Both the position numbers and the translations under genes were made by a program. Positions 10,240 through 37,523 of a stretch of 64,000 bases of DNA are shown here, one piece after another (positions within the stretch are counted from its first letter, which is position 1; every line of letters begins with the position of its first letter). Origin of the DNA: an uncultured Clostridia bacterium (lineage in GTDB: Bacteria; Bacillota; Clostridia; Oscillospirales; Ruminococcaceae); contig CANQZR010000001.1 of the NCBI GenBank assembly GCA_947628405.1, positions 956 through 64,955 of the forward strand, written 5' to 3'. The notes beneath the pieces were generated by a model that was not told the origin of the DNA, searched no databases, and saw nothing but the letters and a program-made list of their open reading frames with translations.

Positions 10240-11351
10240 GAACTGTCACCGTTCTTTTCTTCGTTCATTTGCTTGATCCTGATTTTTAACTGGCGTATTT
10301 CTTCTGCCTGTTTATCTGTTTTGTCCTGTAGTTCAGTTACCATTTCGGTCTGGTCAGCAAGCATTTTCGCATACTCATCTGTGGTAAAATTAAGCTCTTC
10401 AATAAGCGCCTTTGTACTCTGCCGGGCAACATCAAGATAGGATTCAGAAAGTTTGGCATTTACAATATTTACCTTTGTTTCTTCAAAGCCGTGTTCCTGC
10501 ATTTCTTTCATAATATTTGTAAGAGTGTTTGAACCTTTTGAAGATTTTCCGCTGGATTTCGCCGAAATACCATTGTCGTTGGCAATCGTGTTGATACTTC
10601 TCATAAGTTTATCCTTGGAAGCCGTCAGTTTATCAATAACGCCATAGTCAATATATACTTTTTTCAGTTCGGAATTTATCATTGAATCCACTTTGTTGAC
10701 CTGCCACATAGTCTTTACCATTCGCACAACTACTTGAAGTTTATGCTGATCTTCAAGGACATCATCGGTCAGGTAATCCGCAAGCATATTAAAAAGCATT
10801 TTTCTGTCATTGTTGTTGTATTCTTCATCATCGAAACAGTCATATCCGAGAGAAGATATAACATACTGCTGATTTTTCCGGTCGGCAGCGCTCCAGTTCT
10901 TTTCAATGTCACTGCGGACTTCACTATGCGATTTTTCGCCGTTTTCAAGAAGTTCAAAGATATAGTTGTTGAAATTTTTCGATTTGAACTGACGTACATT
11001 CAAAGTACGCATATATGTTCCCAAGGAAAATTCCGGACTTTCTTTCAGCTGTTCATACAGAGTTTCACTGAAATACATATCCAGATAGTGGCATATAATT
11101 ATTAATGCGCGCCGGCAATCGCCGAACCGCGCCTTGTATTCCTCGTAAAGCTGGTTGACACAACTCATACATATGTGAGAATATCCCATATTTCCCGTAA
11201 ACAGCGGACTTGCAGCCGACGCATAGAATTTTCTCTGCGGTATCTGAAATATTTCTCCGCAGCGCGTACACTTGTAAAGTACATCATCATTGTTATCAGG
11301 AATAATTTTTGTAGTCAGTGTGTCATTTTTTGATTTCGCAGGTCTCCCCAT
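10236..11351 (-). CDS. candidate terminase small subunit / DNA-recognition protein with N-terminal zinc ribbon
   Basis: 4-nt overlap with terL. Has CTRCG...CMSC cysteine pairs and a C-terminal coiled coil. The functional call rests on position only. Confidence 0.35.
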   Translation of the reverse strand: MGRPAKSKNDTLTTKIIPDNNDDVLYKCTRCGEIFQIPQRKFYASAASPLFTGNMGYSHICMSCVNQLYEEYKARFGDCRRALIIICHYLDMYFSETLYEQLKESPEFSLGTYMRTLNVRQFKSKNFNNYIFELLENGEKSHSEVRSDIEKNWSAADRKNQQYVISSLGYDCFDDEEYNNNDRKMLFNMLADYLTDDVLEDQHKLQVVVRMVKTMWQVNKVDSMINSELKKVYIDYGVIDKLTASKDKLMRSINTIANDNGISAKSSGKSSKGSNTLTNIMKEMQEHGFEETKVNIVNAKLSESYLDVARQSTKALIEELNFTTDEYAKMLADQTEMVTELQDKTDKQAEEIRQLKIRIKQMNEEKNGDSS

Positions 11352-16597: not shown

Positions 16598-17224
16598 TCA
16601 CACTCCCTGCCCGAATATATCCCCATATAGTTCATCAATATCATTATCCTTGAGAACAAATTCTCCCTTGTTTTCAATAGGAACAAGTATTTTAAGAACA
16701 AGAGTCTTTGACCGTATCTTGTTGTCCCAAGAATACAGAGTTTTCCGTTGAATTTTTTCAACATATGAGAAATCACAAAGCTCCTCGAAGCATTTTGTGC
16801 TTGTAGTGCTTTTGCTTATTTTCAGCCAGTCGGATAAAGCTGTAAGGGATATTGAGAACTCTCCGTCACTGTCAGCAGCGACTTTTGCATAACAAAGCAC
16901 CGCAAGAGCCGTCCGGCGCACCGTAGAATTATCAAATCTTCTGATTATCTCTTCAACATCTTCTTTGCTTACCCGTACAGTAGTTTCATCTCCCCGAAGC
17001 CTGTGTTTGTCATTCATTACACGGGTAATTATTCTGTTAAGGTTGCAATCTATGTTAATGTGGTATTTTTTACCCCACTCAAATATTGTTTCTCTTATCC
17101 GGATATGTGATAAACCTTGCTGCTTGTACCATTTTGCAAGCATAAAGCATATCCTGTAAATGCTTTTTTCATTTATATTCTGTCCGTCAAGGTACTGTCT
17201 GACTTCCGAAACTTCATTGACCAT
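16598..17224 (-). CDS. hypothetical winged-helix-like DNA-binding protein, translationally coupled to the RNAP gene
   Basis: 11-nt overlap with the RNAP ORF. The segment ISLTALSDWLKISKSTTSTKCFEELCDFSYVEKI looks HTH-like. Confidence 0.35.
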   Translation of the reverse strand: MVNEVSEVRQYLDGQNINEKSIYRICFMLAKWYKQQGLSHIRIRETIFEWGKKYHINIDCNLNRIITRVMNDKHRLRGDETTVRVSKEDVEEIIRRFDNSTVRRTALAVLCYAKVAADSDGEFSISLTALSDWLKISKSTTSTKCFEELCDFSYVEKIQRKTLYSWDNKIRSKTLVLKILVPIENKGEFVLKDNDIDELYGDIFGQGV

Positions 17225-20751: not shown

Positions 20752-20920
20752 ACATTCCTTTGGTGAAGAGACTTTATCACACCGACCTCCTCGCAAACAA
20801 ATTGAAGAACCTCCTCACTTAATATTATAAAGTTTATAAAGAAATTTTCAACCGACTTCTTACAAGATTCTCGACAGAAGCTCCGGAAGATCCGGAAGAA
20901 GCTCCTTTGTCCCGTAACAA

Positions 20921-21056
20921 AAAAATTTTGCCCCAATTATAAGTCGAATATATAATATAATATAGTTTAGTAATTTATATATAGTTATATAATATAATAT
21001 ATAATTAATATATATATATATATATTATATAGAGCTTATATATGGGGCAAATTTTT
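20921..21056. repeat. long imperfect palindrome enclosing pure A/T sequence and a (TA)8 tract
   Basis: Arms AAAAATTTTGCCCCA (20921-20935) and TGGGGCAAATTTTT (21043-21056). Inner arms are partly complementary. (TA)8 at 21009-21024. Confidence 0.7.
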
Positions 21057-21530
21057 AAAAATGATTTTATAAACTTCGGGAAGCTCCCTCATAATATCCG
21101 TAAAATTAAAAAAAATCATAGCTTTTTATTATTTTTTTAAAAAAATTTACGGCTTCGCCGTTATCCGTAAGAAAAAATATCTATCTTATTCCGTTCCGAA
21201 AATATAAAAATTATACGTTTTTCGATATGTTTTCAGCGTTTTACTGCTTTTATAAGCAAAAAATCTCGCAAAAGCGAGAAAATAAATAATATTTTTTATG
21301 TTTTTTGTCCCTTACGGGACTGATGAACATTAATGTTTTTCTCAATTTACCGATGTTTGCTCCGAATGATTTTTAAGGTTTTCGGAGTGTTCAGATTTTG
21401 AAATAAGGGATAAAATGATGAACTAAGGTGGGAAATGATTTCCAAATATACACAAATAATGTAAAATACCCCCGGTACACCCTACAAATAACACAAATGT
21501 TTTACTTGTGTTTTTAGCAAATTCGCAAGT

Positions 21531-21552
21531 TTGTATTACTTGAATAATACAA
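21531..21552. promoter_or_regulatory. operator-like palindrome TTGTATTA-N6-TAATACAA
   Basis: Perfect 8-bp arms. Confidence 0.5.
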
Positions 21553-21645
21553 TTTTATTCAGTTAAAACCTATTAAATAACTATGTTTTGATATATACTA
21601 ACATAATATGCATTAAATTCTACTAATATAGTGTGTTTTCTAAAA

Positions 21646-21667
21646 CTGTATTACTGTACTAATACAG
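21646..21667. promoter_or_regulatory. operator-like palindrome CTGTATTA-N6-TAATACAG
   Basis: Perfect 8-bp arms with the same core as the site at 21531. Confidence 0.5.
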
Positions 21668-21728
21668 TTAGTACACTTGTATCATTTTTACACATTTCAT
21701 ATAAAAACATATCATTTATATTACATAT

Positions 21729-21750
21729 TAAAAAATCGCCGTCAGGCGAT
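21729..21750 (-). terminator. rho-independent terminator (minus strand)
   Basis: Minus-strand RNA AUCGCC-UGAC-GGCGAU followed by UUUUUAAU. Confidence 0.55.
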
Positions 21751-22094
21751 CCATACCAATATACAAGACCTTGACCCACTGCAAGCCGGCACCCGTTGAA
21801 ATGGCAAGCAGTGCGCTAATTGATATATACTTATTGTGCCACCAATATATATTATATATTAGTAATGTAATAGAGCAGACACCAGACCCACGGCAACGCC
21901 GGCGCCGGCTCTGTAATATTCAGATACTGACCGCCCGACCTGCTCCGGCTCTTGTGCTGCTCTTGGGATCTTTGGCGATCGTCACCAGAACAGCAGACCA
22001 GACCGCCGACCCTCTTATATAATCCGTACATCTCTTGTAATTTGCTATATAATAGTATATCGGTATAGTCCTGCCGTCCTGCTCAGGGCGTCGG

Positions 22095-22301
22095 CTACCG
22101 CTCTAACTCTTCCAGCGTATCAATCGCGATCCGCACGAAATCCGCTTTACTGATCTTGTTTCGCGTGCAATACTCTTTGATACGTTCCACGATTTCCGGC
22201 GAAACCTTAACGCCGAAATCTTTATAGTGCTGCTTGTTATAATTGCCGGTGTATTCTTGTTTATTGAACCTTTCCGGGCGTTCAATATACTTTTTGTCCA
22301 A
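22095..22301 (-). CDS. ribbon-helix-helix (CopG/Arc-like) DNA-binding protein, paralog A
   Basis: 68 aa, TTG start after AAGGAAG. FGVKVSPEIVERIKEYCTRNKISKADFVRIAIDTL fits a strand-helix-helix layout. Confidence 0.55.
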   Translation of the reverse strand: MDKKYIERPERFNKQEYTGNYNKQHYKDFGVKVSPEIVERIKEYCTRNKISKADFVRIAIDTLEELER

Positions 22302-22358
22302 TAGTAAACACTTCCTTGTAATTCATACAACAAATACGAAACATTAATAAAATGTTCA

Positions 22359-22387
22359 TTGACATTCATTAGCGAATATGTTAAACT
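22359..22387 (+). promoter_or_regulatory. rightward promoter P1 (divergent from RHH-A)
   Basis: TTGACA, 17 nt, TAAACT. Confidence 0.5.
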
Positions 22388-22575
22388 ATAATCAAGATAA
22401 GACAAACAAGCCTTATCTAATCCAAATAAAGGCGATGACATCTTGAAAGACTATGAAAACGCCGATGCGGAATACAGCGAATACTCCTACATCGGCAAGA
22501 ACGACGGGCGCGAGTATGTTAGTTACGAAGAAGCGATAGAAGCTGATCCGAATAATTAACGATCCCGTCAGGCAT

Positions 22576-22606
22576 AGGGCGGATAGAATTTCAGACCGTC
22601 CGCCCT
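22576..22606. terminator. stem-loop between convergent transcription units
   Basis: AGGGCGGA / TCCGCCCT 8-bp stem with a 15-nt loop. No clear T-run. Confidence 0.35.
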
Positions 22607-22655
22607 TGTAAGACCTATTATAACATAGCTTTCTGGAGATGTCAAGAAAAAATTT

Positions 22656-22871
22656 TTACTTTTCCAAGCCTTTTAAAGTAGTCAGGGCAAGTTTTAAAAA
22701 TTCCGCCCGGCTGATATTTTTCCGGCTGCAAAATTCTGTTAAATCTTCCATTAGTTCCGGCGAAATATCCGCGATATACCTTTTATAATGTTCTTTGGCG
22801 TATTTAGCATTATATGCTGATCTGTTGAATTTATCATTTTTAGCAGGACGCTCAATATACTTTTTATCCAA
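22656..22871 (-). CDS. ribbon-helix-helix DNA-binding protein, paralog B
   Basis: 71 aa. Shares MDKKYIERP and the overall pattern with paralog A, and has the same TTG start context. Confidence 0.55.
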   Translation of the reverse strand: MDKKYIERPAKNDKFNRSAYNAKYAKEHYKRYIADISPELMEDLTEFCSRKNISRAEFLKLALTTLKGLEK

Positions 22872-22928
22872 TAGTAAACACTTCCTTTAAATTCATACAA
22901 CAAATACGAAACGTTAATAAAAAATTCA

Positions 22929-22957
22929 TTGACATTTTCACGTATGTGATGTATACT
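22929..22957 (+). promoter_or_regulatory. rightward promoter P2 (early operon)
   Basis: TTGACA, 17 nt, TATACT. Lies in the duplicated segment. Confidence 0.55.
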
Positions 22958-23320
22958 AATATCAAGATAAGACAAACGAGACCCGATAATGTAAGAGTAG
23001 TCGACAAGGCGGTAACAGACCGCTGGCAAATCCACCGGGCGAAGTCTTATAAATAGTATAACAAATTATCCCGACAATGTCAAGACAAAGTCGGATACAT
23101 ACCGCCGGATCCTATGGGGATCAGATCCGGAAAACCTCAATCCTGCCGGGAATAATCCCGAATCCGTCATAACCCGGACTTTGACGGACAAAATTATAAC
23201 CGCCGATTTTCGCCGGCGCGTAACCAGAAGCGGAAAAGTTTTTCGGGGCTTAACTTAAAACCCCACCCCACGCCGAAAGGCTTTGAAAAAAGTAAAATTA
23301 TATTTTAGGAGGATAAAATA

Positions 23321-23551
23321 ATGAAAGTTATAAACGAGAAAAATTTAAAGGACTTTGAATTTTGGAGCGGTGCAAAGGATCGCGCCCAGTATCTGACAGA
23401 AGAAGAGTTCGACACCATCGAACAGACTTTAGAAGAATGTTATCCGGACGGAATGACAGAAACCGAGATCAACGATTTTTTCTGGTTCGACTTTGAAACC
23501 GTTGCCGAGTGGATCGGAACGACAGAAGAAGAAATTTTTAATAGAGCATAA
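23321..23551 (+). CDS. highly acidic small protein (first early gene)
   Basis: RBS AGGAGGA. 76 aa, roughly 30 percent Asp+Glu by eye. Confidence 0.6.
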   Translation: MKVINEKNLKDFEFWSGAKDRAQYLTEEEFDTIEQTLEECYPDGMTETEINDFFWFDFETVAEWIGTTEEEIFNRA

Positions 23552-25994: not shown

Positions 25995-26115
25995 TATTTA
26001 AACATAGTTTAATTTTAAGTGCAAAGTCAAAAGGCTTTGCACTTTTTCATTGCCAAAGCGGAAAAATTCAGTTATCCGGAATATCCGAACAACTTACCGA
26101 AAGCGAGGAATTTTT

Positions 26116-27195
26116 ATGGAAAAAACCATTACCGGCGTATATATCGACGTGGAAAAACTATCAAAGCACGTCCCCCAGATGAAAGCACGGGACGAAGCCA
26201 CAGCGGAGCTTTATAATACAATGGAAAATTACCGCTCCAAGGGCAGCGGAATGGACAGCATACCGCCGGAAATTTTCAACGCCCTTGTGTCTCACTTATT
26301 GGCGGAAGATCGGTTGAGGGACGCCATGATGATCGTTTGCGCTGCCAACTGGGGAATGAGATTTTCCGACCTTTCAAGAGTGAGATTTTGTCACATCTTT
26401 GACCGGAGCGGAAATTTCCTTGATAAATTTTCGCTTCCAAACGGAGAAAAAAAGACCCAGAAAGCGAATATTTATTTCAACAACGAAGCCACAAGGCTGA
26501 TGATCCGGCGGTATATAGCGGAAGATCCGCGCATAACGCCTATGGATTTTTTGTTTACAAGCAATTCGGGCAACGCTCCGGAAACTTCCTATCTTGAAAT
26601 TGAAGCGGAAGAAAAATACGGAAAAGTTATAAAAAAGCTAAAAAAACAAAATATTTTGCTTGAAAAGGAGCGGAAAAGTTTGATAAAATTGTATACAGAA
26701 AATCTTATTGACAGCGGAACATTTAAAACCGCGTCCGAGGAGATAGAAGCCAGAGCGGAACATATCCGAGGAGAAATTTCACGCACCGAGGAAAACAAGC
26801 GGAAATTTTTATCGGAAAATCCGGACAAAGCGAAAATAAAGATACAAGCCCCACTAAGCAGAACGGCAGCGGAAAATATCATAAAGTCCGCACTTGCGGA
26901 GATAAATGTACTTCCCAAGAACCGTACGGACAAAGGAACAGCCGCAACAACGGAAGAAAAATACAATACCCACAGCCTGCGGAAAACCTTTTCAGCACAG
27001 TTCCTTGAAACGGGCGCGAGATTGAGGGACGCCGGAAAAATTGACCTTGACAGGGACCTTATGCAGCTATTGCAGGACAAATTAATGCATAGTTCAATGC
27101 AGATCACCGACCGCTACAATAAGTATCAGCTGGAAATTTTCGGAACTATCTGCCGTAATATGAACATAGGACTTGAAGCCATACTTTCAGAGTGA
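26116..27195 (+). CDS. tyrosine recombinase / integrase with internal coiled-coil insertion
   Basis: Motifs GMRFSDLSRV (Arg I), HSLRKTF (His-x-x-Arg) and LMHSSMQITDRYNKY (His/Tyr). About 90 aa of Glu/Lys-rich insert lies between the boxes. Start MEKTITG after GCGAGGA. Confidence 0.75.
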   Translation: MEKTITGVYIDVEKLSKHVPQMKARDEATAELYNTMENYRSKGSGMDSIPPEIFNALVSHLLAEDRLRDAMMIVCAANWGMRFSDLSRVRFCHIFDRSGNFLDKFSLPNGEKKTQKANIYFNNEATRLMIRRYIAEDPRITPMDFLFTSNSGNAPETSYLEIEAEEKYGKVIKKLKKQNILLEKERKSLIKLYTENLIDSGTFKTASEEIEARAEHIRGEISRTEENKRKFLSENPDKAKIKIQAPLSRTAAENIIKSALAEINVLPKNRTDKGTAATTEEKYNTHSLRKTFSAQFLETGARLRDAGKIDLDRDLMQLLQDKLMHSSMQITDRYNKYQLEIFGTICRNMNIGLEAILSE

Positions 27196-27211
27196 AAAGA
27201 GGGAAAAATTT

Positions 27212-27781
27212 ATGAATTTACAGCAGTATATCAAAAACCACATTGCAGAAGTGACCCCGATCCCCTTGGAAAAAATCGCATTAACGGAACGCCTGCACCT
27301 GTCGGGACAGCTTCCGGAAAATGCAGAGCTGTCGGAATTTCCTGTGCTTGTTGTCCGCCCGATATTGAATAATCGCCGGAAAAACGGACGTTACCTTGCA
27401 GCGGAAAATTACGCTCTTGTATGCAACTGGAAAGACTATATGTTACAGAAAAGTGATCCCGATTGCCGGAATGTTTACTGTATAATAACCGACTGCTACA
27501 GGCGGAAATTTATGCAGACCATAAGAGAAATAAACAGCACGAAATCAAAGAGGATCTTAACGGAACAAATAACCGTCCCCGTGGAATTTATGAAAACTCC
27601 GCCCAACGAGCAGAAGATCGAACGAGCGGAAGAATTTTACAGCGTATATGGGCATTTTGATATGCCCGTAACGGTAAAGGAATACGGCGGAAAATATCTT
27701 CTTGCGGACGGCTATGCACGTCTGATAGCAGCAAGGCGAATGAAAATCTCATATGTTTTAGCGGATATAGTGGAAAATTAA
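27212..27781 (+). CDS. ParB/Srx-like N-terminal-domain protein (possibly two degenerate copies)
   Basis: C-terminal PVTVKEYGGKYLLADGYARLIAARRMKISYVLADIV resembles the ParB-N core. A weaker copy sits near PVLVVRPI...GRYLAAENYALV. Confidence 0.45.
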   Translation: MNLQQYIKNHIAEVTPIPLEKIALTERLHLSGQLPENAELSEFPVLVVRPILNNRRKNGRYLAAENYALVCNWKDYMLQKSDPDCRNVYCIITDCYRRKFMQTIREINSTKSKRILTEQITVPVEFMKTPPNEQKIERAEEFYSVYGHFDMPVTVKEYGGKYLLADGYARLIAARRMKISYVLADIVEN

Positions 27782-28436: not shown

Positions 28437-29396
28437 ATGAACGAGTATATTTTTAACCTTGAGACCACCAAAATAGAACTGCATTTTGAAAAATCGCAGT
28501 ATGACGCGCTGACGGACAAACAGAAACGAGACTTAAAAAGCGCATTTCTCTGGAGCAGCCGTGGAAAATGCTGGGTCAGCCGTGCAAAAGAACCAAACCT
28601 CTGGAGGGCAAAGCAGGTCGCCGAAGCCCTCGGATTTACTTCCGAAAAAAGAGAGGGAGAGCGTCTTTCTTTTGCAGAACAGGTGGAAAAACAGACCGAA
28701 AAAGCGGAAAAACGAGCGGAGCAATATACAGCATATGCCGAAAAAGCAGCGCAAAAGGCGGAAAAACTGCAAGAACCTATCAACAGTATGTATGGGGATA
28801 TAGCTTTTTTCACACAGCCTAATATAAGCACATCTGCCGGACGTGCTTTCACAAAACGCCGTGAGGCAATGTTTGACCGCTATGAAAAAGGCTTTGCCGA
28901 GTATCGCAAAAGCGAATATTTTAAGAAAAGAGCAGAGGACCTTGCAAGATCAGATGAAAAGTACAGGAATATTTCCTATCTTGACCGCCGTATCAAAGAA
29001 TGTAAAAAAGAGATACGGGCAAGAGAAAAGAATGTACTGCGCTATGAAGATGTATTAAACAAGTTGGAAAACGGATTGGAAAATTATACATACGATCCTA
29101 AACTGTCTTCCGTTGAAACCGTAAGCAAATGGCTTGAAGATGAACTTGAACTTATTGAAAAGGCGATCGACAAACAATGTTATCTTGAAAATTGCCTTGA
29201 CGCCGTCGGCGGAATAAAATTCAATAAGGACAATATACAAAAAGGCGATATAGTGCGTATGGAATCATTCGGCTTGTGCGAGGTCGTCGGCAAAGGTCCC
29301 GTCAACATAACATACCGCATACTTAAAACAGGCGGAATTTTAAAAGGCACATATGCGGAGATCATGGATATTGTTAAAGGAGATGAAAAGAAATGA
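28437..29396 (+). CDS. DUF3560-like protein
   Basis: N-terminal LKSAFLWSSRGKCWVSRA and central AEKAAQKAEKL...GDIAFFTQPN...GRAFTKRREAMFDRYEKGF...KSEYFKKRAEDL match my recollection of DUF3560 proteins of conjugative elements. Confidence 0.5.
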   Translation: MNEYIFNLETTKIELHFEKSQYDALTDKQKRDLKSAFLWSSRGKCWVSRAKEPNLWRAKQVAEALGFTSEKREGERLSFAEQVEKQTEKAEKRAEQYTAYAEKAAQKAEKLQEPINSMYGDIAFFTQPNISTSAGRAFTKRREAMFDRYEKGFAEYRKSEYFKKRAEDLARSDEKYRNISYLDRRIKECKKEIRAREKNVLRYEDVLNKLENGLENYTYDPKLSSVETVSKWLEDELELIEKAIDKQCYLENCLDAVGGIKFNKDNIQKGDIVRMESFGLCEVVGKGPVNITYRILKTGGILKGTYAEIMDIVKGDEKK

Positions 29397-29695
29397 TTTA
29401 CAACGGTAAACCTGTTTATACATCAGATACATTCAGCTTTGAAAAGGTCAAAATCGGCGATTATGTCAATCAGGAGGTTGTTGATGATTGTATGGGCGTG
29501 GTTCCCCCTGTGTGTATGAGTTCAAGATGTTCACAGATCGGAGAACCGTATAGCTATAGACAATATCCGAACACTGGAAAATGGAGATCAACGTATTCTA
29601 CATTCAAGTGCGTTGCAGGAACGTACCCTGATGGTATCTGGGAGTATTGCGGTCACTGTTTCAGAGGCGAGACAGAAGATCGTGGAAAAAATTAA
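29393..29695 (+). CDS. hypothetical Cys-rich protein (100 aa)
   Basis: ATGA overlap with the upstream gene. Confidence 0.5.
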   Translation: MIYNGKPVYTSDTFSFEKVKIGDYVNQEVVDDCMGVVPPVCMSSRCSQIGEPYSYRQYPNTGKWRSTYSTFKCVAGTYPDGIWEYCGHCFRGETEDRGKN

Positions 29696-29713
29696 AAGAG
29701 AAAGACACAGAAA

Positions 29714-30697
29714 CTAATTCTCAATAAATTCTTCCACGGAAGAACGTATAATATCCAGTCTCTTGTGAGTGTTAGTGTTGCTTGTAGTCTGTTTTGAGGA
29801 TGCCGAAACATACTCCTCCGGCATATCTGAAAAGAACGATAAACACCATTCCGCAAGCCGGGCGGAATTTTCAAATTTGTTTACAAAGCCTACATACGAT
29901 AGAAAATGCGTCTTTTTCATCATATTCTGTGCGGAAAATTTATCCGCTATCAGGACTTTTTTGTAAGCGTCAAAAACTATGTCGTAAACAGAGAGAATTT
30001 CCGCCTTGTCGCTTTCGGAAATTTCGATCTCTTCCATAAGCTCGGAAAAATGCTTTGCACTGTAGTCCGGATCAGTCTCATTAAGAGCCTGCCAAGTCTT
30101 GACAACGATCTCATCTTCCGGAATTTTTTTCAGGGCGTCGGAAGAAAACATAGCCCGGAAAATTTCGTGCTTTCCGATCTCTTTGATAACGTCCATACAG
30201 CTGTTCCGGCTGCGTGCAAGGTCAATTTTGGACATTGCCTTGCCGCTGTTTGAGCGATTGAAGAATAAACCCTCAATGGACGGATCAGCATTTTCAAGGA
30301 CTGCCATATCTATCTGGAAGTCGAGGATCTTCATCTGCAAGTCCTCGTCGAGCTTACGGAAAAATTTCCCGTTCAGCTTGTAGGGCTGCCCACGGAGAAT
30401 AATATCCGGCTCTTTTTCAAGACCGGAAAGAGCGTATTCATTGTTGATGTAGCGTATAAGAGAATTTCCTCTCTGTTTGCCGTCCAGAACGTCCCAACCG
30501 TTTTCCTTTGCGCTTATAAGGAACGGCTTCTGATATACAAGCACATCATACAGCAGACTGTGAATGTAAAGAGAGGACATTTTCTTATTCCATACAGCAC
30601 CACGCTGGATAGGATTATCAAAGTTTATCTGACCTTTTTGAAATCGTTTTACAAAGGAATTGACAGACCAGCTGTCACGGTAAGCGCGATAATTCAT
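29714..30697 (-). CDS. DUF262 (GmrSD N-terminal, ParB/Srx-fold) protein without DUF1524
   Basis: Motifs FDNPIQRGAVW, VLDGKQRGNSLIRY and FFNRSNSGKAMSKIDL. Confidence 0.7.
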   Translation of the reverse strand: MNYRAYRDSWSVNSFVKRFQKGQINFDNPIQRGAVWNKKMSSLYIHSLLYDVLVYQKPFLISAKENGWDVLDGKQRGNSLIRYINNEYALSGLEKEPDIILRGQPYKLNGKFFRKLDEDLQMKILDFQIDMAVLENADPSIEGLFFNRSNSGKAMSKIDLARSRNSCMDVIKEIGKHEIFRAMFSSDALKKIPEDEIVVKTWQALNETDPDYSAKHFSELMEEIEISESDKAEILSVYDIVFDAYKKVLIADKFSAQNMMKKTHFLSYVGFVNKFENSARLAEWCLSFFSDMPEEYVSASSKQTTSNTNTHKRLDIIRSSVEEFIEN

Positions 30698-30745
30698 TTA
30701 AAAACAGCTCCTTTTTGGAAATTTTTTCGTGGCAGTAAAAAACAC

Positions 30746-30801
30746 TTGACATTATAGAACGAATGTTCTATAATATAAATCACATAGGAACAAATGTTCT
30801 A
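30746..30801 (+). promoter_or_regulatory. consensus promoter with two GAAC-N4-GTTC operators
   Basis: TTGACA (30746-51), 17 nt, TATAAT (30769-74). TAGAACGAATGTTCTA (30755-70) spans the spacer and -10. A second site, GGAACAAATGTTCT, lies at 30785-30801. Confidence 0.65.
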
Positions 30802-30955
30802 TAAAACAAGTTTTGACCTATAAAAATTATATCAAAATCGGGTCAAAAAATCAATATTTAATATTTTTCTTTTAAAATAGTGACAAAAAAAGCGGATAAT
30901 TTTGTTAAATTTAACAATTGTTTGAAAGAGTACAACAGAACAAGGAGGAAAAGTC

Positions 30956-32344
30956 ATGCCAAAGAACAGCGGAAAATCAAGACAGCGGAAGCAGAAGCCT
31001 ATCACCATTGATGTGGGCGGAAAAACCTATACTTTTGCAGGGATCGTGGAAACCAGATCCCAAGTAAAACTGATCCCGTTTACCGTTGAATCATATGTCA
31101 GGGACGTAATTAGCGGAGAGATCGACAGGGACACACTTATACAGCGTGAGCCGGATCAGTGGAGTACATACACCAAGTCAATGCTTATCTATGCAATGCT
31201 TATGGATAGGCAGATCGGCAATATCCTTATTGCCAAAGGACGTGACGAATCGAAAAACTATGAGATAGATTCCCTTATAGACGGCTTGCAGAGGACTACC
31301 GCAATTGTAGGATATGTCAACGGAGAATTTTCTTTAAGCAAGAAGATACCGGCAATAAACTGCCGTTTCAAGGACGAGGAAGAAAACTCAATAGAAGTGC
31401 CTTATGAGATAGGCGGAAAAAAATTTGACAAACTTCCGTCCGTCTTGCAGAAATCGCTGCTCAGATATCGCCTGACAGTATATGAATATGTGGACTTTGA
31501 GGACGAGGAGCTTGACGAGATCGTCAAGTGCGTAAACAGCGGAAAATCTCCTACAGTGTACCAGAAAATGCGGTTTACCCTCGGTTCGGATAATATGCGT
31601 ATGCTTCAGCCTTTGTGCGACAGTACCCTGTGGGAAGATATTCCCAACGTAAAAGCCAAGAATGACAGTATCCTTGCCTGCGTTATAAGAACGGCAATGC
31701 TCAATACAAGGTATGCCTTTAATAACCTTGGAGCCGGACAGATGAACGAGTTTGTTTCCCACTTCGGAGAAAATGTTACTCTTTCCAAGATCCGCGAGAC
31801 CGGAGAGCTTATTGAACAGCTTGCCGAAATAAAATGCGGAATGTCCGATGACGATATCGAGATATTCAGCGGTTGCTCCATACCGCATATTGTAATGAAT
31901 CTGAAACGTTACAACAGTATAGGGGAAAATTCCGTTTCCTACGGAGAATTTCTCCACGACTTCTTTTTGAGCGACGAATACCAGAAATTCTGTGATACCG
32001 AGGAGACCGGCAGCGGTGGATCTCAGTATTCACTGGAAAATGTCTCGGAGCGTCAGGCGATAATCGACGATTACCTTGACAGTTATTTTGAAAATTCTGA
32101 AAATACGGAGGGAGAAGGCGATGACCGGAAAGGAACAGAAACGACTTCTGGAAGAACAGAAAACAGCTATAGCGGAAGAGACGGAACGAATGGCGGAACG
32201 GATAGAACGGGAGCATATGACGATATCTCTATGCAGGGATATATCGGAGCTTACGGACAAACGCCTGAAAATTTTGAGTTCGGGGAAAACTATCCTGCAC
32301 AGATTTTATATCGAGACGTCTCAGCTCCTCGGACTTCCACTTAA
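30956..32344 (+). CDS. DUF262 (ParB/Srx-fold) protein; the 3-prime ~220 nt overlap the next gene out of frame
   Basis: Motifs IQREPDQW, LIDGLQRTTAIVGY and VKCVNSGKSPTVYQ. The last ~75 aa are low complexity (GTETTSGRTENSYSGRDGTNGGTDRTG). Confidence 0.65.
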   Translation: MPKNSGKSRQRKQKPITIDVGGKTYTFAGIVETRSQVKLIPFTVESYVRDVISGEIDRDTLIQREPDQWSTYTKSMLIYAMLMDRQIGNILIAKGRDESKNYEIDSLIDGLQRTTAIVGYVNGEFSLSKKIPAINCRFKDEEENSIEVPYEIGGKKFDKLPSVLQKSLLRYRLTVYEYVDFEDEELDEIVKCVNSGKSPTVYQKMRFTLGSDNMRMLQPLCDSTLWEDIPNVKAKNDSILACVIRTAMLNTRYAFNNLGAGQMNEFVSHFGENVTLSKIRETGELIEQLAEIKCGMSDDDIEIFSGCSIPHIVMNLKRYNSIGENSVSYGEFLHDFFLSDEYQKFCDTEETGSGGSQYSLENVSERQAIIDDYLDSYFENSENTEGEGDDRKGTETTSGRTENSYSGRDGTNGGTDRTGAYDDISMQGYIGAYGQTPENFEFGENYPAQILYRDVSAPRTST

Positions 32345-32834
32345 CGGAGTAAAAAATCTGCGAACGATCAACAGATTTTATGAAAATGCGGATAACGGCT
32401 TGGATAAACAGTGTATAGAATATGTCCTTGGAAAAAACAGTATCTCTATTACTGCAAAAATAGCCGGAGTTCTGGAGAGATGTACCAACGAAGAAAAGAC
32501 CGGACTTTTGTGTGGAAAAATAATGCCCACCGCACTTATAGAGACCGTCCGCAGCCGTTCCGCACCGAGTTGCAAGACCTTTGAGGAATTGCAGCAGGAG
32601 ATAAGAGATCCCGACGCAGCCGGAAATTTAAAGCTGTCTGATACAGCAAAGCTCTTTGATTATGCCGTTGAACAGATCGAAAAAACAGTCGAAAGGCTCA
32701 TAACCGGCGAATATGCGGAAACTTTCAGGGAAAAGGACGCCGTTTCACGGAAAATAATACGGGAACGGTGCGCCGACCTTGAATATGTCGTTAAAGTCGT
32801 TTTATCGCTGACCGATAATACACAAAATTCATAG
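32121..32834 (+). CDS. hypothetical helical protein (237 aa)
   Basis: RBS GGAGGGAGAAGG before the ATG at 32121. The translation looks protein-like from the first codon. No family recognised. Confidence 0.5.
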   Translation: MTGKEQKRLLEEQKTAIAEETERMAERIEREHMTISLCRDISELTDKRLKILSSGKTILHRFYIETSQLLGLPLNGVKNLRTINRFYENADNGLDKQCIEYVLGKNSISITAKIAGVLERCTNEEKTGLLCGKIMPTALIETVRSRSAPSCKTFEELQQEIRDPDAAGNLKLSDTAKLFDYAVEQIEKTVERLITGEYAETFREKDAVSRKIIRERCADLEYVVKVVLSLTDNTQNS

Positions 32835-32846
32835 GAGGAATAAATT

Positions 32847-33698
32847 ATGGAAAAAATGTCAAATTCCACAGTAAAAGAGTACCTCGAAAGAAAAAGGAAG
32901 AAAGCCGAGAGCATACAAAACAATATTCCCGAGACTATCACCATAAACGCAGATATCCTTAAAACGGCACCCTATTCCCAAAGACCGGTAAGTAAGCGGT
33001 GGGCGGAGGAAATAGCAGCTAAATTCGATCCCAAACTTCTCGATCCGCTGACGGTGTCCTACAGGGACAGAAAATATTTTGTGATCGACGGACAGCACCG
33101 ACTTTACGCCATACGGAAACTTTTCGGCGACAAACAGCTTGTGAATTGTAAAGTCCTGCACGGCTTAACGGAACAGCAGGAAGCTGAAATGTTCGTAAAA
33201 ATGAATACCTGTGAACGATCCCTTAACTACGCCGACGAAGTAAGGGCTTTAGCCTTTTCCGGCGATAAAATGATAGACGCTATCAACGGAATATGCGCGT
33301 CCAACGGCATAGAGTTCGGATACGAACAGGGCAAAAGAGGAAAGAAAGACAGCCGTATAACCGCCCTTAAAACTCTCACTGATATATATGAAAAGATCGG
33401 GGCGCAGCAGACGGAAAGAATTATCAAAATACTCAGTACAACTTGGAGCGGACAGTCGGAATCACTTTCGGCAGTTATGCTTTCCGCTATGTCGTGTATT
33501 ATGGACCTTTACGGGAATGAATTAGAGGATAAAACTTTCACCAAGAAACTTGCCGGAATAGACCCTACATTCCTTGTTACCAAAGCACGAAACGATACAG
33601 TCACAAACGCAGCCGTTTCCGTCAGACTTGCAAGAATAATCGTAAATTACTACAATAAAGGCGCAGGGAAAAAGCTCCCGTATCGCTTCGGAGTATAA
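32847..33698 (+). CDS. DGQHR-motif ParB/DndB-like protein
   Basis: LDPLTVSYRDRKYFVIDGQHRLYAIRKLFG. RBS AGGAGGA. Confidence 0.65.
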   Translation: MEKMSNSTVKEYLERKRKKAESIQNNIPETITINADILKTAPYSQRPVSKRWAEEIAAKFDPKLLDPLTVSYRDRKYFVIDGQHRLYAIRKLFGDKQLVNCKVLHGLTEQQEAEMFVKMNTCERSLNYADEVRALAFSGDKMIDAINGICASNGIEFGYEQGKRGKKDSRITALKTLTDIYEKIGAQQTERIIKILSTTWSGQSESLSAVMLSAMSCIMDLYGNELEDKTFTKKLAGIDPTFLVTKARNDTVTNAAVSVRLARIIVNYYNKGAGKKLPYRFGV

Positions 33699-33714
33699 AA
33701 ACGGAGGGATTTTT

Positions 33715-34365
33715 ATGAAAACAACTGTCGAAACAGTGGAATTTCTGCATACTATGTTTCCGCTTTTTAATAAGGAATACGTCAACGAAAGTGCAAATAT
33801 TGTGGACGATAACGGAACGGTGTGGTTCGCCCTCGATAACGTCAAGATCGGCGCAGAAAAACTTGCTATAAAAGCCTTTGCGGAATATATGACAGGGGAG
33901 ACCTTTGACGGAGATTTACATAATACCACATTTTACATCGGCTTTTCATATACAACGGAGAAAACCAACTGTATAGCATCTGTTGGTATGGAGATCATAG
34001 ACAAACAACCGTTTATCCGCAAATCACTTCCGATAATATTTTACCGTAACAGCGGTAGCCTTGACTATGGAGAAGTAGTTGCATTGCATCTTTTCTGTAA
34101 ATATGCGGCAGACTGGACGATAAAATACATCAGGAATGATATTTTCGGCGCAATGGAGCTTCCGGGAGAATTTCGCAGTGATAATCTGATCGGAGGGACA
34201 TATTGTCATTCAAGGTCTGTAAACGACAGAGCGGTGTTTTATATAATGCCGGAATGGTGGAAACATTCACTTTTCCCAAAGTATACTAAATGGGAAGAAT
34301 TTGTGGATAAAAGACTTAAAACCCAACAGCGCTCCGGAATATTTATGGCGGTCAGCTGCGACTGA
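33715..34365 (+). CDS. hypothetical protein (216 aa)
   Basis: RBS ACGGAGGG. No family recognised. Confidence 0.5.
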   Translation: MKTTVETVEFLHTMFPLFNKEYVNESANIVDDNGTVWFALDNVKIGAEKLAIKAFAEYMTGETFDGDLHNTTFYIGFSYTTEKTNCIASVGMEIIDKQPFIRKSLPIIFYRNSGSLDYGEVVALHLFCKYAADWTIKYIRNDIFGAMELPGEFRSDNLIGGTYCHSRSVNDRAVFYIMPEWWKHSLFPKYTKWEEFVDKRLKTQQRSGIFMAVSCD

Positions 34366-34439
34366 TTAAGTTAATCCCAAAGATGTAAAAGAAAATTCAT
34401 AATTTTAAAATATATAATATCTTAAATTTTCCTTTTAGA

Positions 34440-34460
34440 AATTGTATAATATATACAATT
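34440..34460. promoter_or_regulatory. perfect 9-bp inverted repeat AATTGTATA-ATA-TATACAATT overlapping a TATAAT
   Basis: Read directly from the sequence. Lies 22 nt upstream of the ATG at 34482. Confidence 0.5.
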
Positions 34461-34481
34461 CGGACAGAGAGGGGAAAATTT

Positions 34482-35354
34482 ATGGTATTATATATTGATG
34501 AATTTGAAAAAGAATACCCGACAAAAGGCAAACATATGCGTTTTTACGATAAACTTCCGGAATATCTGCACGAAATGAAACCGGAAAAGATAACAGAATA
34601 CGCGTCAAGGAACGGAAGGACCTCTATGGTTATCCAGAGTGAAGCGATACTTGCCTATCTGTCGTGGCTTGCAAAGTATCACGGCGCAGAAGCAGGAAAA
34701 GAGCTTCCGGAGCTGAATTACGATCTTACGCAGAAATTTCAGGAAACGGAATGTGATTATATCGGATTTTATAACCTTGCTGAACTCCGTCAAACACTGG
34801 AAGAACATATCCGGAAGATAGAAGCCATATCACCAAGAGCGGATCTCAGCGGATATGTTATAGCTTGCCTTATGGAATGGTACGGCATAACCACGGAAGA
34901 ATTTGTTTCTGTAAGAATGCAGGACGTATCCGAGGACGGCAGAGAAATTTACGTTCCCAAAAGCGGAAGAACAGCGGAAATAGATGATACAATGACGGCT
35001 TCAGCAATAGCGGAATATCGTCGGAAAGCGATAGATTCCGGAAAAACGCAGGAGTGTCTGTATATAACATCAAAGGATATACCGTTAAAGGTAAAAACCA
35101 TATATAACGCACGGGATAAGTTTATGACATTTACAGGCGATGATAGATTTGCCAAAAGACGGGTGTATTATTCCGGAAGATTTGCAAAGATGTTTGAAAT
35201 GGAAAACGAGCATGGAACGGCATTTCTGACGGAAAACAAGAATACACAAAAGATAATGTCCGAACTTTTCGGTGAATTAAGTCTGCCGAAAATGAATTAT
35301 CTGTTGTCGCTGTACCGGTCGTACAAGACAGGTTATCTGAAAAGTTTGAATTGA
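34482..35354 (+). CDS. hypothetical protein with degenerate tyrosine-recombinase-like segment
   Basis: YGITTEEFVSVRMQDVSEDGREIYVPKSGR resembles the integrase box I region, but the Arg position is Thr. Weak call. Confidence 0.3.
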   Translation: MVLYIDEFEKEYPTKGKHMRFYDKLPEYLHEMKPEKITEYASRNGRTSMVIQSEAILAYLSWLAKYHGAEAGKELPELNYDLTQKFQETECDYIGFYNLAELRQTLEEHIRKIEAISPRADLSGYVIACLMEWYGITTEEFVSVRMQDVSEDGREIYVPKSGRTAEIDDTMTASAIAEYRRKAIDSGKTQECLYITSKDIPLKVKTIYNARDKFMTFTGDDRFAKRRVYYSGRFAKMFEMENEHGTAFLTENKNTQKIMSELFGELSLPKMNYLLSLYRSYKTGYLKSLN

Positions 35355-35447
35355 TACTAAATCAGTCATAATTACAAAAAAAACTGTGTTTTTATCTGAA
35401 AAATGATTAATTTTTCATTATTTTTCAAATTAAAATGAATTTTTTAG

Positions 35448-35476
35448 TTGACTTTGGGTAAAATAGATGTTATAAT
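35448..35476 (+). promoter_or_regulatory. promoter of the ATPase/TOPRIM cassette
   Basis: TTGACT, 17 nt, TATAAT, followed by RBS AGGAGGG. Confidence 0.6.
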
Positions 35477-35498
35477 AGATTTAGGAGGGATAAATACT

Positions 35499-36824
35499 AT
35501 GAAGATACTTAGTGTAACAATAAGCGGCTTTAAAAATCTTCAGAAGTCAAAAATCAATTTGGGTCGCATTGTTGCGATCGTATCGCCGAATAACTACGGT
35601 AAATCTAATTTTCTGGAAGCAATTGATTTTGGAATTTATTTTATCTCTGCAAGTGAAAAAGTCAGAAAAACTATGATGAGTTATGTAGGCGGTATTCCTA
35701 TTAATAATTTACTTGCCATGGAAGATTTCTTTTTCGAGATAGAATTTGATAATGGAACAAATGATGAATACAGATATGTAAAGTACGGATATTCATTTTC
35801 ATGGTATCGTGACGACGGCTCCGGTCAAAGAATAACGGACGAATGGCTTGAAGCTCGTCCCGGTCAAAACGTAAAATATACTAAATTTTTAGATCGTAAG
35901 TCCGGCAAGTATAAAAAAAAGAAATATACAAACTCTTATAGAACTATCAGGCCAAACAGCAGTCAATTATCAATTGATTTATTATCGGCGATGAATGAGA
36001 TTGCGATCAATCCGATAATTAAATCAATAAAACATCTTGATTATAATGTGTGTTCGTCTCTTGATCTGGACGATCGCTTTCAGCCAATGCCGATTGACTA
36101 TGTTTCAGAAAATGATGAAATAGGATCTGTATGTTTTGATGATCGTGATGTGCCGAGGGCGATATATAAGTTAAAACAGATGTATCCGGAAAAATATCAG
36201 TTGTTTATTGAAGCAATACACACCCTTTTCCCTGATTTTTCCGACATAACAGTTGAATCTTATTCAATATTTAAAAACTATTCTCCCGAAATATCGCTGA
36301 TAGTGTCTAAGAATGGCGAATCAGACGCAGTTAAAGAAGATATTCCGTTTAAAATCAGAGATGAAATATATAGGATATACGTTAAGAGTAAGAGTATTAA
36401 TCAGCCGATGGATATTGCAAGAATGTCCACGGGAACAAAGCGTATATTCTGGCTGCTTGCAAACATTTTCATTGCAAGCACAAAAAAAATGTGCTTTATT
36501 GGCGTGGAGGAGTTGGAAACAAGTATACACCCCAGATTGCTGAAAAATCTGCTTGAGATCCTTGATGAAGCACTTGAAGATACATCTATAATAATATCAA
36601 GTCATTCTCCGTTTTTAATTCAATATATTAAACCGGACAAAATTTATGTTGGATGTCCTAATGATAATGGGATAGCTTTGTTTAAACGTTTGAAAAACAC
36701 AAAATCAAAGCAGTTTATCGGTATGGCAAAAGATAATGGTATGTCATTAGGCGAGTATATTTTCGAGCTGCTTTCGGGAGATCCTGACAATGAAAATATA
36801 TTATCTTTTTATCTGGAGGGATAA
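35499..36824 (+). CDS. ABC-type (AAA_15/AAA_21-like, OLD/PARIS/AbiL-type) ATPase
   Basis: Walker A VSPNNYGKSN, signature-like MSTGTKRIFWLL, Walker B MCFIGVEELETSIHP, H-loop IISSHSPF. Confidence 0.7.
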   Translation: MKILSVTISGFKNLQKSKINLGRIVAIVSPNNYGKSNFLEAIDFGIYFISASEKVRKTMMSYVGGIPINNLLAMEDFFFEIEFDNGTNDEYRYVKYGYSFSWYRDDGSGQRITDEWLEARPGQNVKYTKFLDRKSGKYKKKKYTNSYRTIRPNSSQLSIDLLSAMNEIAINPIIKSIKHLDYNVCSSLDLDDRFQPMPIDYVSENDEIGSVCFDDRDVPRAIYKLKQMYPEKYQLFIEAIHTLFPDFSDITVESYSIFKNYSPEISLIVSKNGESDAVKEDIPFKIRDEIYRIYVKSKSINQPMDIARMSTGTKRIFWLLANIFIASTKKMCFIGVEELETSIHPRLLKNLLEILDEALEDTSIIISSHSPFLIQYIKPDKIYVGCPNDNGIALFKRLKNTKSKQFIGMAKDNGMSLGEYIFELLSGDPDNENILSFYLEG

Positions 36825-36827
36825 TAT

Positions 36828-37523
36828 ATGCCGGAAAAATATGTAAAAGGATTGGCTTTTATTTTTGAAGGTGCTACAGAAAAAGTTTTCTATCATACAA
36901 TGTTAGAATATTTTGTCGGTAAACATTGTGGATATAGCTTAAATACGCAAATAAACGGAAAAACAGGAGAATCGTTCGATACTATATCTTTTGAAGATAA
37001 GAAAATTCTTGTAATGTTTAATAACGTCGGTACTATTACACAAGTAACTCATTCCGGCGAATGGTTCAAAACAAGGTGTTATGAGAGAAACAAAGGGCTC
37101 AGGTGGACGGTTTTTCTGTGTTATGACACAGATTCTTATCAAAACAATATCACCAAGTTTCATGAGGGAGACTGGAACGAACTCAGAAAAACCATTCAGA
37201 AATGCAATGATCCAACTATAATAGATCTTGCGGCAAAAGCTGATATTGAAGATATTATGTTATCGGATGCGGAAGGTGTATTTAAATATTTAGAAATAGA
37301 GCCTATACAGATCCCGAAAAGGAGTAATGGGAAAAATAAAATGAGACAAATTTTTCGTACGAAAGGACGTGGGTATACATATCACGAAGGTAAAAGAGCA
37401 GAACCGCTTATAAAATCGTTAAATATGGAGAAAATCATATCTTCGCTGCCCGAAATACCATTTTGTGAAATTGAATCCGAATTTGAAAATGCATTTTCTT
37501 CCGATGATAACAGAATTACATAA
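36828..37523 (+). CDS. TOPRIM-like (RloB / DUF4276 / DUF4435-type) putative nuclease
   Basis: N-terminal LAFIFEGATEKVFY (TOPRIM Glu) and VFLCYDTDSYQ (DxD). Starts 3 nt after the ATPase stop. Confidence 0.5.
   Translation: MPEKYVKGLAFIFEGATEKVFYHTMLEYFVGKHCGYSLNTQINGKTGESFDTISFEDKKILVMFNNVGTITQVTHSGEWFKTRCYERNKGLRWTVFLCYDTDSYQNNITKFHEGDWNELRKTIQKCNDPTIIDLAAKADIEDIMLSDAEGVFKYLEIEPIQIPKRSNGKNKMRQIFRTKGRGYTYHEGKRAEPLIKSLNMEKIISSLPEIPFCEIESEFENAFSSDDNRIT

Follow-up and report, generated by a model that had tools for sequence, protein, structure and literature searches.

A ParB-fold gene trio behind LexA-type operators: a candidate early-gene module in a YonO-type temperate phage of an uncultured Clostridia bacterium

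ParB-CTPase-fold and DUF262 proteins are increasingly seen as nucleotide switches on mobile elements, and functional knowledge of them comes almost entirely from partition and from nuclease-linked defence. Among the described systems closest to the locus treated here, Menshen (NsnABC) has as its sensor NsnA, in which a helical, DNA-binding ParBDB domain succeeds a ParB-DUF262 NTPase domain and which lacks a DUF1524 nuclease; NsnB comes after nsnA in an almost invariable arrangement, and the third gene encodes NsnC, an inactive-PIN N-domain joined to a toxin/nuclease C-domain (PMC12065111). The helical middle domain that accompanies the DUF262 NTPase/sensor domain in GmrSD, SspE and BrxU has been equated with ParBDB (PMC12065111). 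Orphan ParB-CTPase-fold proteins of mobile elements, among them the 5mYOX ParB-like activators and the ParB/KorB/Noc clamps, work by binding DNA or a partner and not by catalysis on DNA (PMC13229309; 10.1101/2025.10.10.680097), and phage ParB-CTPase-DUF6551 fusions, whose function is unknown, bind CTP or ATP in vitro (10.1101/2025.10.10.680097). Here, we analyse a locus of five open reading frames (ORFs), encoding DUF262-A, DUF262-B, ORF3, a DUF6551 protein and ORF5, in a 64,000-nucleotide stretch (hereafter the window) of contig CANQZR010000001.1 (positions 956 to 64,955, assembly GCA_947628405.1) from an uncultured Clostridia bacterium of the Ruminococcaceae.

We reason that the locus may be an early-gene module of a YonO-RNA polymerase (RNAP) temperate phage, with a ParB-fold trio (DUF262-B, ORF3 and DUF6551) at its core, and not a restriction-type defence system; we give this reading a probability of roughly 45%. 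It draws on the position of the genes in an early operon, on the company that DUF6551 genes keep with replication and recombination genes, on the pairing of DUF6551 with a second ParB-fold protein, on the absence of a nuclease, of NsnB and of NsnC, and on the predicted silence of the locus in the lysogen. All five ORFs, the promoter and the palindromes that a first-pass annotation of the sequence had described were recovered together with the motifs it quoted, and they are not a product of chance (Table 1).

Table 1. Coordinates of the features discussed (positions in the window)
Feature	Position	Strand	Details
DUF262-A	29714-30697	-	327 aa; NPIQRGAVW, DGKQR, FNRSN
DUF262-B	30956-32344	+	462 aa; IQREPDQW, DGLQRT, VNSGK; first gene of trio
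ORF3	32121-32834	+	237 aa, all-helical; second gene of trio; GGAGG 9 nt upstream of ATG
DUF6551 protein	32847-33698	+	283 aa; VIDGQHRLYAIRKL; QR, DGQHR, EAE; third gene of trio
ORF5	33715-34365	+	216 aa; 16 nt downstream of DUF6551
Bidirectional promoter, nearly symmetric	30746-30779		+ TTGACA-17-TATAAT 30746-30774; - TTTATA-17-TATAAT 30779-30751
Operator 1, TAGAACgaatGTTCTA	30755-30770		LexA (Cheo)-type box, core 30757-30768
Operator 2, aGGAACaaatGTTCTa	30786-30801		second LexA-type box; core GAACaaatGTTC at 30788-30799
AAA_15/AAA_21 ATPase + 231-aa protein	35448-37523		probable ATPase start 35499; 231-aa gene 4 nt later
YonO-type single-subunit RNAP gene	17214-19676	-	Pfam RdRP 1.3e-18; SPBc2 yonO E 1e-13
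C5-cytosine methyltransferase	57361-58560		plus-strand block

The two DUF262 assignments of the first-pass annotation were upheld by searches with profile hidden Markov models (HMMs). NsnA is the best PADLOC match of both proteins (DUF262-A 1.7e-23, aligned to profile positions 48-384 of 385; DUF262-B 8.7e-22), phrog_2598 matches both as well (4e-31 and 1e-17, respectively) and phrog_1583 adds support for the wider DUF262 clade; the PADLOC and PHROG matches make the assignment solid, with the Pfam GmrSD_N/DUF262 scores (PF03235; 32.8 bits for DUF262-A, 29.0 for DUF262-B) lying slightly under the gathering score of 33.2. Judged by these alignments, both are full-length, stand-alone NsnA-like proteins (ParB-DUF262 followed by a ParBDB-type helical domain), which share with the Menshen sensor its architecture, the QRxxxW, DGxQR and FxxxN-type motifs, and the lack of DUF1524. 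They are distant paralogues of one another (30% identity over the N-domain). DUF262-B, which can be aligned with other stand-alone phage DUF262 proteins, comprises a short conserved N-terminal extension, DUF262, a ParBDB-type domain reaching to about residue 385 and an acidic/Gly-rich low-complexity tail, comparable to those found after the core in a 662-aa protein of a Monoglobus prophage (L073) and in a Bacillus phage homologue. A PDB sequence search with DUF262-A gave nothing significant, and Pfam detected no nuclease domain in it.

Neither DUF1524 (PF07510) nor any other nuclease family was found at E<=0.1 in the ten locus-region proteins scanned with Pfam, and the earlier statement that the locus has no recognisable nuclease also held in PADLOC, PHROG and NCBIfam. 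The locus shares with GmrSD, SspE and BrxU a DUF262 NTPase/sensor domain and a helical middle domain, and departs from them in that no locus protein has a DUF1524 His-Me nuclease domain (Pfam). From Menshen it differs in that neither DUF262 gene is followed by an NsnB ATPase (AAA_15 + DUF3696) or by NsnC, DUF262-B being followed instead by ORF3 and DUF6551, and in that the genes are phage-encoded and apparently SOS-repressed. ORF3, ORF5, ORF6 and the 231-aa protein encoded further downstream, considered as NsnC, were without PADLOC or Pfam match. No named system fits, as had been suspected: PADLOC recognises the NsnA component only, and NsnB, NsnC, DUF1524 and dnd/dpd partners were not found.

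For the third gene of the trio, the description as a 'DGQHR ParB/DndB-like protein' holds in part. Membership in the ParB superfamily and the DGQHR motif stand (and with them the count of three ParB-superfamily proteins in the cluster, which the HMMs bear out); the protein is a member of DUF6551 (PF20188; 111.4 bits against a cut-off of 26.8, 6.7e-32, profile positions 6-242 of 242) and not of the DndB/DpdB class, with which it has in common the ParB/Srx fold and the DGQHR box II motif. It stays below the cut-offs of TIGR03187 DGQHR (38.6 bits, cut-off 58.85) and TIGR04172 (22, cut-off 450), reaches E 0.08 with Pfam DndB (PF14072), and the flanking genes are without Dnd/Dpd families. An N-terminal ParB-CTPase-fold domain precedes the DUF6551 helical domain, and the window protein keeps 20/20 invariant columns of a 20-member family alignment, QR and DGQHR boxes included. 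It resembles the 5mYOX activators and the CTP-switch clamps in being an orphan ParB-CTPase-fold protein on a mobile element, and is set apart from them by a locus without a dioxygenase, ParA or a parS-like repeat array; a Pfam scan of 30 ORFs of the window (the 100-aa ORF at 29393-29695 and 29 others, each 120 aa or longer) showed no ParA/CbiA-type protein of a ParABS system.

DUF6551 is a widespread 'ParB-like' family of phages and other mobile genetic elements (81 phage records). A ParB_N gene precedes it in 51 of the 80 genome loci, nearly always with a 4-nt start/stop overlap, and lies upstream of it in 32/74 scorable viral loci; phage DUF6551 genes otherwise follow genes for DGxHR/helix-turn-helix (HTH) proteins, for proteins without assignment or for DNA polymerase A, within replication/recombination modules. 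This gene order suggests that DUF6551 proteins usually act paired with another ParB-fold protein. As in the ParB_N + DUF6551 pairs of Clostridia elements and phages, DUF6551 is in the window the downstream member of a tight group that begins with a ParB-superfamily gene; unlike in those pairs, the upstream partner here (and in eight IMG/VR contigs and L073) is DUF262/NsnA-like instead of ParB_N-HTH, the overlapping ORF3 stands in between, and DUF6870 and serine-recombinase genes are missing. Lachnospiraceae/Oscillospiraceae genomes commonly carry a strongly conserved module in which ParB_N and DUF6551 (4-nt overlap) are followed by DUF6870 and three tandem large serine recombinases (L007-L012, L017, L021-L074); some copies adjoin relaxase/mobilisation genes, and the whole resembles a module from the end of an integrative mobilisable element.

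The trio also occurs in other phages. By a DUF6551-profile scan of IMG/VR combined with local HMM searches, we found eight contigs (L161, L165, L167, L169-L173; 40-133 kb, about four lineages) with the order DUF262-B, ORF3, DUF6551 and the same spacing, in which DUF262-B retains 42-46% identity (E 1e-104 to 1e-115), ORF3 25-27% (aligned end to end) and DUF6551 28%. The view of the five genes as one co-conserved unit does not survive this comparison: only DUF262-B, ORF3 and DUF6551 are strictly syntenic in the eight contigs, an ORF5-like gene is displaced, and DUF262-A homologues (38-40% identity) are found in two of the eight (L161 and L171), 3.5 kb upstream of the trio. Hence, the conserved unit is the trio, and ORF5 and DUF262-A are looser associates. 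In their flanks, the relatives have only an integrase-fold protein and a small ParB-like protein in common with the window. A DUF262-then-DUF6551 adjacency was also met in the Monoglobus prophage, where the 662-aa protein (DUF262 core, acidic linker and helical C-domain) is encoded directly upstream of DUF6551, the pair being flanked by a CI-like S24 repressor and a DnaD-like gene. An earlier view of ORF3 and ORF5 as ORFans in a cluster that is not conserved, drawn from word-indexed searches (in which ORF3 matched only itself) and single-protein IMG/VR scans, was overturned by the DUF6551-profile scan and the local HMM searches. GenBank phages gave no blastn match to the locus, and a YonO-based scan made to tie the eight contigs to one phage family found close relatives on other contigs only.

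The first two genes of the trio overlap. ORF3 begins within DUF262-B, in the +1 frame and 224 nt ahead of its stop codon (about 75 codons of overlap), and an overlap of 215-227 nt with the identical frame relation occurs in all eight IMG/VR relatives. Among the relatives, the number of substitutions per site within the overlap is highest at the third position of ORF3 codons (0.39, against 0.28 and 0.24 at the other two), which indicates that ORF3 is the constrained frame and is under purifying selection there. Three cysteines are invariant in the ORF3 family. ORF3 has no match in Pfam, PHROG, PADLOC, NCBIfam or PDB sequences, and its family profile retrieved from the PDB coiled-coil noise only. 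Two candidate identities were dropped: a HisE/MazG-type phosphoribosyl-ATP pyrophosphatase at its C-terminus (a single PDB entry, E 0.017 full-length and 0.0044 with the C-terminal segment; no Pfam PRA-PH match, acidic motifs not kept in the family), and homology to the ParB_N partners (C-terminal part) or to the 662-aa protein of L073 (C-domain; hhalign probabilities of 12% and 0.4%). The single-protein layout in L073 raises the possibility that a frameshift could yield a fusion of the DUF262-B and ORF3 products.

The divergent units share an intergenic region of 258 bp (30698-30955), which contains, as first reported, a perfect TTGACA-17-TATAAT promoter (12/12 score, the sole perfect site in the 6.2 kb scanned) and two GAAC-N4-GTTC palindromes, whose starts are 31 bp apart. 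In the whole window this exact motif occurs twice, both times here (0.9 expected), and a relaxed search for AGAAC-N4-GTTCT found no further copy with fewer than two mismatches. Operator 1 occupies the spacer of both promoters and overlaps the plus-strand -10; operator 2, three helical turns (31 bp) further downstream, covers about +6 to +18 of the plus-strand transcript. By virtue of the near mirror symmetry of the promoter (operator 1 is the centre of a 15-nt inverted repeat with 87% complementarity), the minus strand reads TTTATA-17-TATAAT over operator 1 as well; on that strand the start codon of DUF262-A follows after 47 nt, with a ribosome-binding site (AAAGGAG) as read from the sequence. 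A direct repeat of 22 nt (86% identical) shows the same 31-bp spacing, and the intergenic region holds no repeat array besides the two operators; an Rfam scan of 29300-35500, the 170-nt leader included, gave no match.

GAAC-N4-GTTC is the LexA operator of Bacillus subtilis, and the Clostridium consensus is GAACN4GTT[TC] (PMC4234289). Both operators fit exactly the Firmicute LexA core as known from B. subtilis and Clostridium. We infer that LexA represses both divergent units through these predicted boxes: one LexA dimer at box 1 would shut both, and box 2, three helical turns off, would strengthen repression of the plus-strand operon. The arrangement recalls LexA-repressed prophage early operons, of which coliphage 186 tum is an example, in that a LexA-type box lies over a strong phage promoter and expression is predicted to be tied to SOS; it differs from them in its cargo (ParB-fold proteins, no known antirepressor) and in a mirror-symmetric promoter that serves two paralogous genes.

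The palindromes may alternatively be operators of a phage repressor, or sites of autoregulation by the ParB-fold proteins, instead of host LexA boxes; this alternative, which concerns regulation only and is compatible with any function of the locus, we regard as possible and still the less probable account of the sites. In the IMG/VR relatives, the trio promoter (TTGACA-17-TATCAT) lies inside a 17-nt inverted repeat (CTTATATGATAACATAT / ATATGTTATCATATAAG) with the core ATATG-N4-CATAT, has no exact LexA box in its region and stands beside a small divergent gene, judged by eye to be of Xre-type HTH. DndB offers a precedent for autoregulation, since it represses its own dnd operon in an ATP-dependent manner (cited in 10.1101/2025.10.10.680097). 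Set against this are the exact fit of both sites to the experimentally defined Firmicute LexA core (PMC4234289), the absence of the motif from the rest of the 64 kb, where a phage master repressor usually has several operators, and the lack of an HTH repressor gene flanking the window promoter (ORF list and Pfam). The operator and the repressor-like divergent gene of the relatives imply that the trio heads a repressor-controlled operon there too; the differing repressors are as expected for mosaic immunity regions and suggest that the genes are expressed as lytic growth sets in, a role in which host LexA would seem to act directly in the window.

From the LexA-type operators of the window and the position of the relatives' trio, which opens an early operon next to a repressor gene, expression is expected at induction or in early lytic growth. 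In a lysogen, LexA would keep both transcription units off; DNA damage would remove LexA, and the proteins would be made at the very start of induction, the consensus sigma-A promoter driving the trio and ORF5. The two ParB-fold proteins of the trio would then attach to DNA, where they would probably act as clamps or sensors that depend on nucleotides, and ORF3 would bridge them or serve as their partner. The outcome within the early and replication programme of the phage would be that DNA is bound, marked or regulated, and not cut.

The phage setting, already suggested in the first-pass annotation, is borne out by YonO and the phage replication genes of the window (G+C about 40%). A minus-strand block (0.4-20.8 kb) includes an 820-aa homologue of YonO, the single-subunit RNAP of SPβ, which is 41% identical to a protein of Thomasclavelia ramosa phage TR-TP2; the plus-strand block, from 24 kb on, encodes YopX, a Sak annealase, a PD-(D/E)XK nuclease, a primase-helicase, PolIII-alpha, RecD2, a C5-cytosine methyltransferase and an anaerobic ribonucleotide reductase (NrdD). 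YonO and this replication gene content mark the window as DNA of a large temperate phage of the SPβ-like, YonO-RNAP type whose host is an anaerobic Firmicute, and put the locus in its early/replication arm. The closest annotated relatives of the YonO homologue are from phages of T. ramosa and Enterocloster bolteae, which extends SPβ-like YonO phages to gut Clostridia and Erysipelotrichales.

Several points weigh against an early-gene module. Outside defence systems, NsnA-like proteins are so far not known (PMC12065111), and an AbiL-like ATPase pair 1.1 kb downstream gives the neighbourhood the look of a defence island. Synteny by itself is no proof of physical or functional interaction, LexA binding is deduced from sequence, and the different operator of the relatives implies that SOS control is not conserved along with the trio. 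AlphaFold2 gave no usable fold for ORF3 (single sequence, pLDDT 41.2) or ORF5 (2-sequence alignment, 38.6). Moreover, box II of DUF6551 reads DGQHT in trio relatives L161, L165, L169, L172 and L173 (about 5962-6753), all five of those aligned; 20 other members of the family keep the arginine of DGQHR without exception, as do the window protein and that of L073. Nucleotide binding by DUF6551 may hence be dispensable, the pocket perhaps being degenerate in that lineage, and a strict nucleotide-switch role for this subunit is doubtful. The DGQHT lineage echoes the 5mYOX-associated phage ParB, whose NTP-site mutants are still active (PMC13229309).

The first of the functional alternatives would make the locus a phage-borne system of defence or exclusion, related to Menshen or PD-T4-2 but with a diverged effector: one or both NsnA-like DUF262 proteins would sense foreign, possibly modified, DNA, and ORF3, ORF5 or the AbiL-like pair would be the toxic effector. 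The domain evidence is on its side: besides the PADLOC NsnA matches, DUF262-A partially matches PD-T4-2_A (2.8e-10, profile positions 33-158 of 363), DUF262 is the sensor in GmrSD, SspE and Menshen (PMC12065111), and 'DefenseFinder protein' is the annotation given to a homologue in Alicyclobacteria phage MMB025. DUF262-A is also the sole minus-strand gene in the plus-strand block, which is typical of a moron, and the ATPase with its 231-aa partner lies close by. Yet neither NsnA-like gene is followed by NsnB or NsnC, no locus protein matches PD-T4-2_B (PADLOC), ORF3 and ORF5 have no nuclease or toxin domain in Pfam, PADLOC, PHROGs, NCBIfam or PDB sequences, and the ATPase pair is absent within 6 kb of the trio in all eight relatives. 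LexA-type repression and the head-of-operon position, furthermore, predict silence in the lysogen, the opposite of what prophage immunity needs. The proposal of a phage-borne defence or exclusion module made by the first-pass annotation is thus served less well by the predicted expression, at induction and in early lytic growth and not in the lysogen, than is a phage early function, and we consider defence unlikely.

The downstream ATPase deserves a separate word. Its best PADLOC matches are AbiLi (1.8e-27), HEC-01A (1.5e-26) and AriA, and the pair has a TTGACT-17-TGnTATAAT promoter of its own; it looks like a separate two-gene defence candidate, on the evidence of these matches. As NsnB of a Menshen system the ATPase was rejected, being AbiLi/HEC-01A-like, four genes apart and not conserved with the trio: NsnB is not among the 25 best PADLOC matches of this ATPase (the nearest one, 3.1 kb from an nsnA-like gene), and Pfam gave no DUF3696 match. 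The 231-aa protein has no HMM match, PDB sequence searches with it and with ORF6 found nothing significant, and its N-terminus (FIFEGATEKVFY) appears RloB/Toprim-like by eye.

A second functional alternative, counter-defence or accessory service to DNA modification, would have effector-less sensor copies mask the phage DNA or titrate parts of host Menshen/GmrSD-type systems, or the ParB-fold proteins direct or activate a modifying enzyme. Early, induction-coupled expression is how anti-defence genes behave, and an anti-defence role has been suggested for orphan phage ParB-CTPase fusions, which are enriched in prophages (10.1101/2025.10.10.680097); the decoy idea has no direct support, and no known anti-defence family was matched. 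As regards modification, a phage ParB-like protein is the obligatory activator of a neighbouring 5mYOX (thymine dioxygenase) enzyme (PMC13229309), and the phage of the window encodes the C5-cytosine methyltransferase. That enzyme is 23 kb off, however, no modifying enzyme occurs in or beside the locus here or in the relatives, and the absence of histidine among the conserved residues of the ORF5 family makes an HxD...H dioxygenase site in ORF5 unlikely. Overall, we judge this alternative improbable. Least plausible of all is a mosaic of independent accessory genes with no joint function, for which one may cite the frequency of ParB-fold genes in phage early regions, the 81 phage records of DUF6551 without DUF262, the stand-alone DUF262 genes of other large phages (L018, L019) and the loose attachment of ORF5 and DUF262-A in the relatives, and which runs counter to the persistence of trio order, long overlap and short gaps at 25-46% protein identity between flanks otherwise unshared bar one pair, to the independent adjacency in L073 and to the habitual coupling of DUF6551 to an upstream ParB-fold gene.

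If the early-gene module is followed further, the trio might be pictured, tentatively, as an effector-less 'hetero-ParB' machine, in which a DUF262 sensor NTPase and a DUF6551 ParB-CTPase, bridged by ORF3, would load on DNA at lytic onset and would mark the phage genome, shield it or organise it, or else blind DUF262-based immunity of the host; DUF6551 would then always be the second subunit to a ParB_N-HTH, DGxHR-HTH or DUF262 partner. Each of the domain families is already known, and NsnA-like and DUF6551 proteins are individually common in phages. In the literature searched, we found no description of the trio with its overprinted overlap, of a general DUF6551/ParB-fold pairing or of a LexA-box-gated symmetric promoter. 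What the locus adds is a compact group of genes, found repeatedly in phages, that couples a Menshen-type sensor to a different ParB-fold protein in place of an ATPase and a toxin. Should the DUF6551 pairing hold, three small genes and one inducible promoter would offer a tractable entry to orphan phage ParB-like proteins, and would show whether NsnA-type sensors can have non-immune or counter-immune roles. Of secondary interest, for gene regulation and gene origin, are the LexA-box-gated mirror-symmetric promoter and the overprinted overlap of about 220 nt.

The family of ORF5, the looser associate of the trio, is defined by a C-terminal motif (W..IR...G.F..D.I...Y..R......YI..WW). A word-indexed search returned ORF5 itself and one homologue (81%), full HMMER added three remote relatives (E 3e-7 to 6e-4), and the family HMM matches a 145-aa ORF about 2.7 kb downstream of the trio in six of the eight IMG/VR contigs (E about 1e-4). 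In these contigs (L165, L167, L169, L170 and L172, about 9336-10385; L173, about 9375-9794) the ORF5-like gene is followed after about 105 nt by a PemK/MazF-type toxin gene, checked in L172 only (9960-10385, Pfam 5.6e-30); ORF5 of the window has no such toxin beside it.

Between the divergent late minus-strand and early plus-strand blocks of the window, about 2.6 kb (20800-23400) contain no ORF of at least 120 aa and could harbour regulatory RNAs or a lysis-lysogeny switch. In the pair shared with the relatives (26050-27781), the gene of the integrase-fold protein (Pfam Phage_integrase 7e-7) overlaps by 23 nt that of a 202-aa protein, whose C-terminus (LLADGYARLIAARR) resembles the DUF6551 N-domain (blastp 2.4e-4) and which is a candidate fourth ParB/Srx-like protein. 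The pair lies 3.8-4.9 kb upstream of the trio in the window and directly downstream of it in the eight IMG/VR contigs (280 aa + 185 aa; L172 6776-8190), and may correspond to the MrpR/YopR-type recombinase-fold repressors of SPβ phages.

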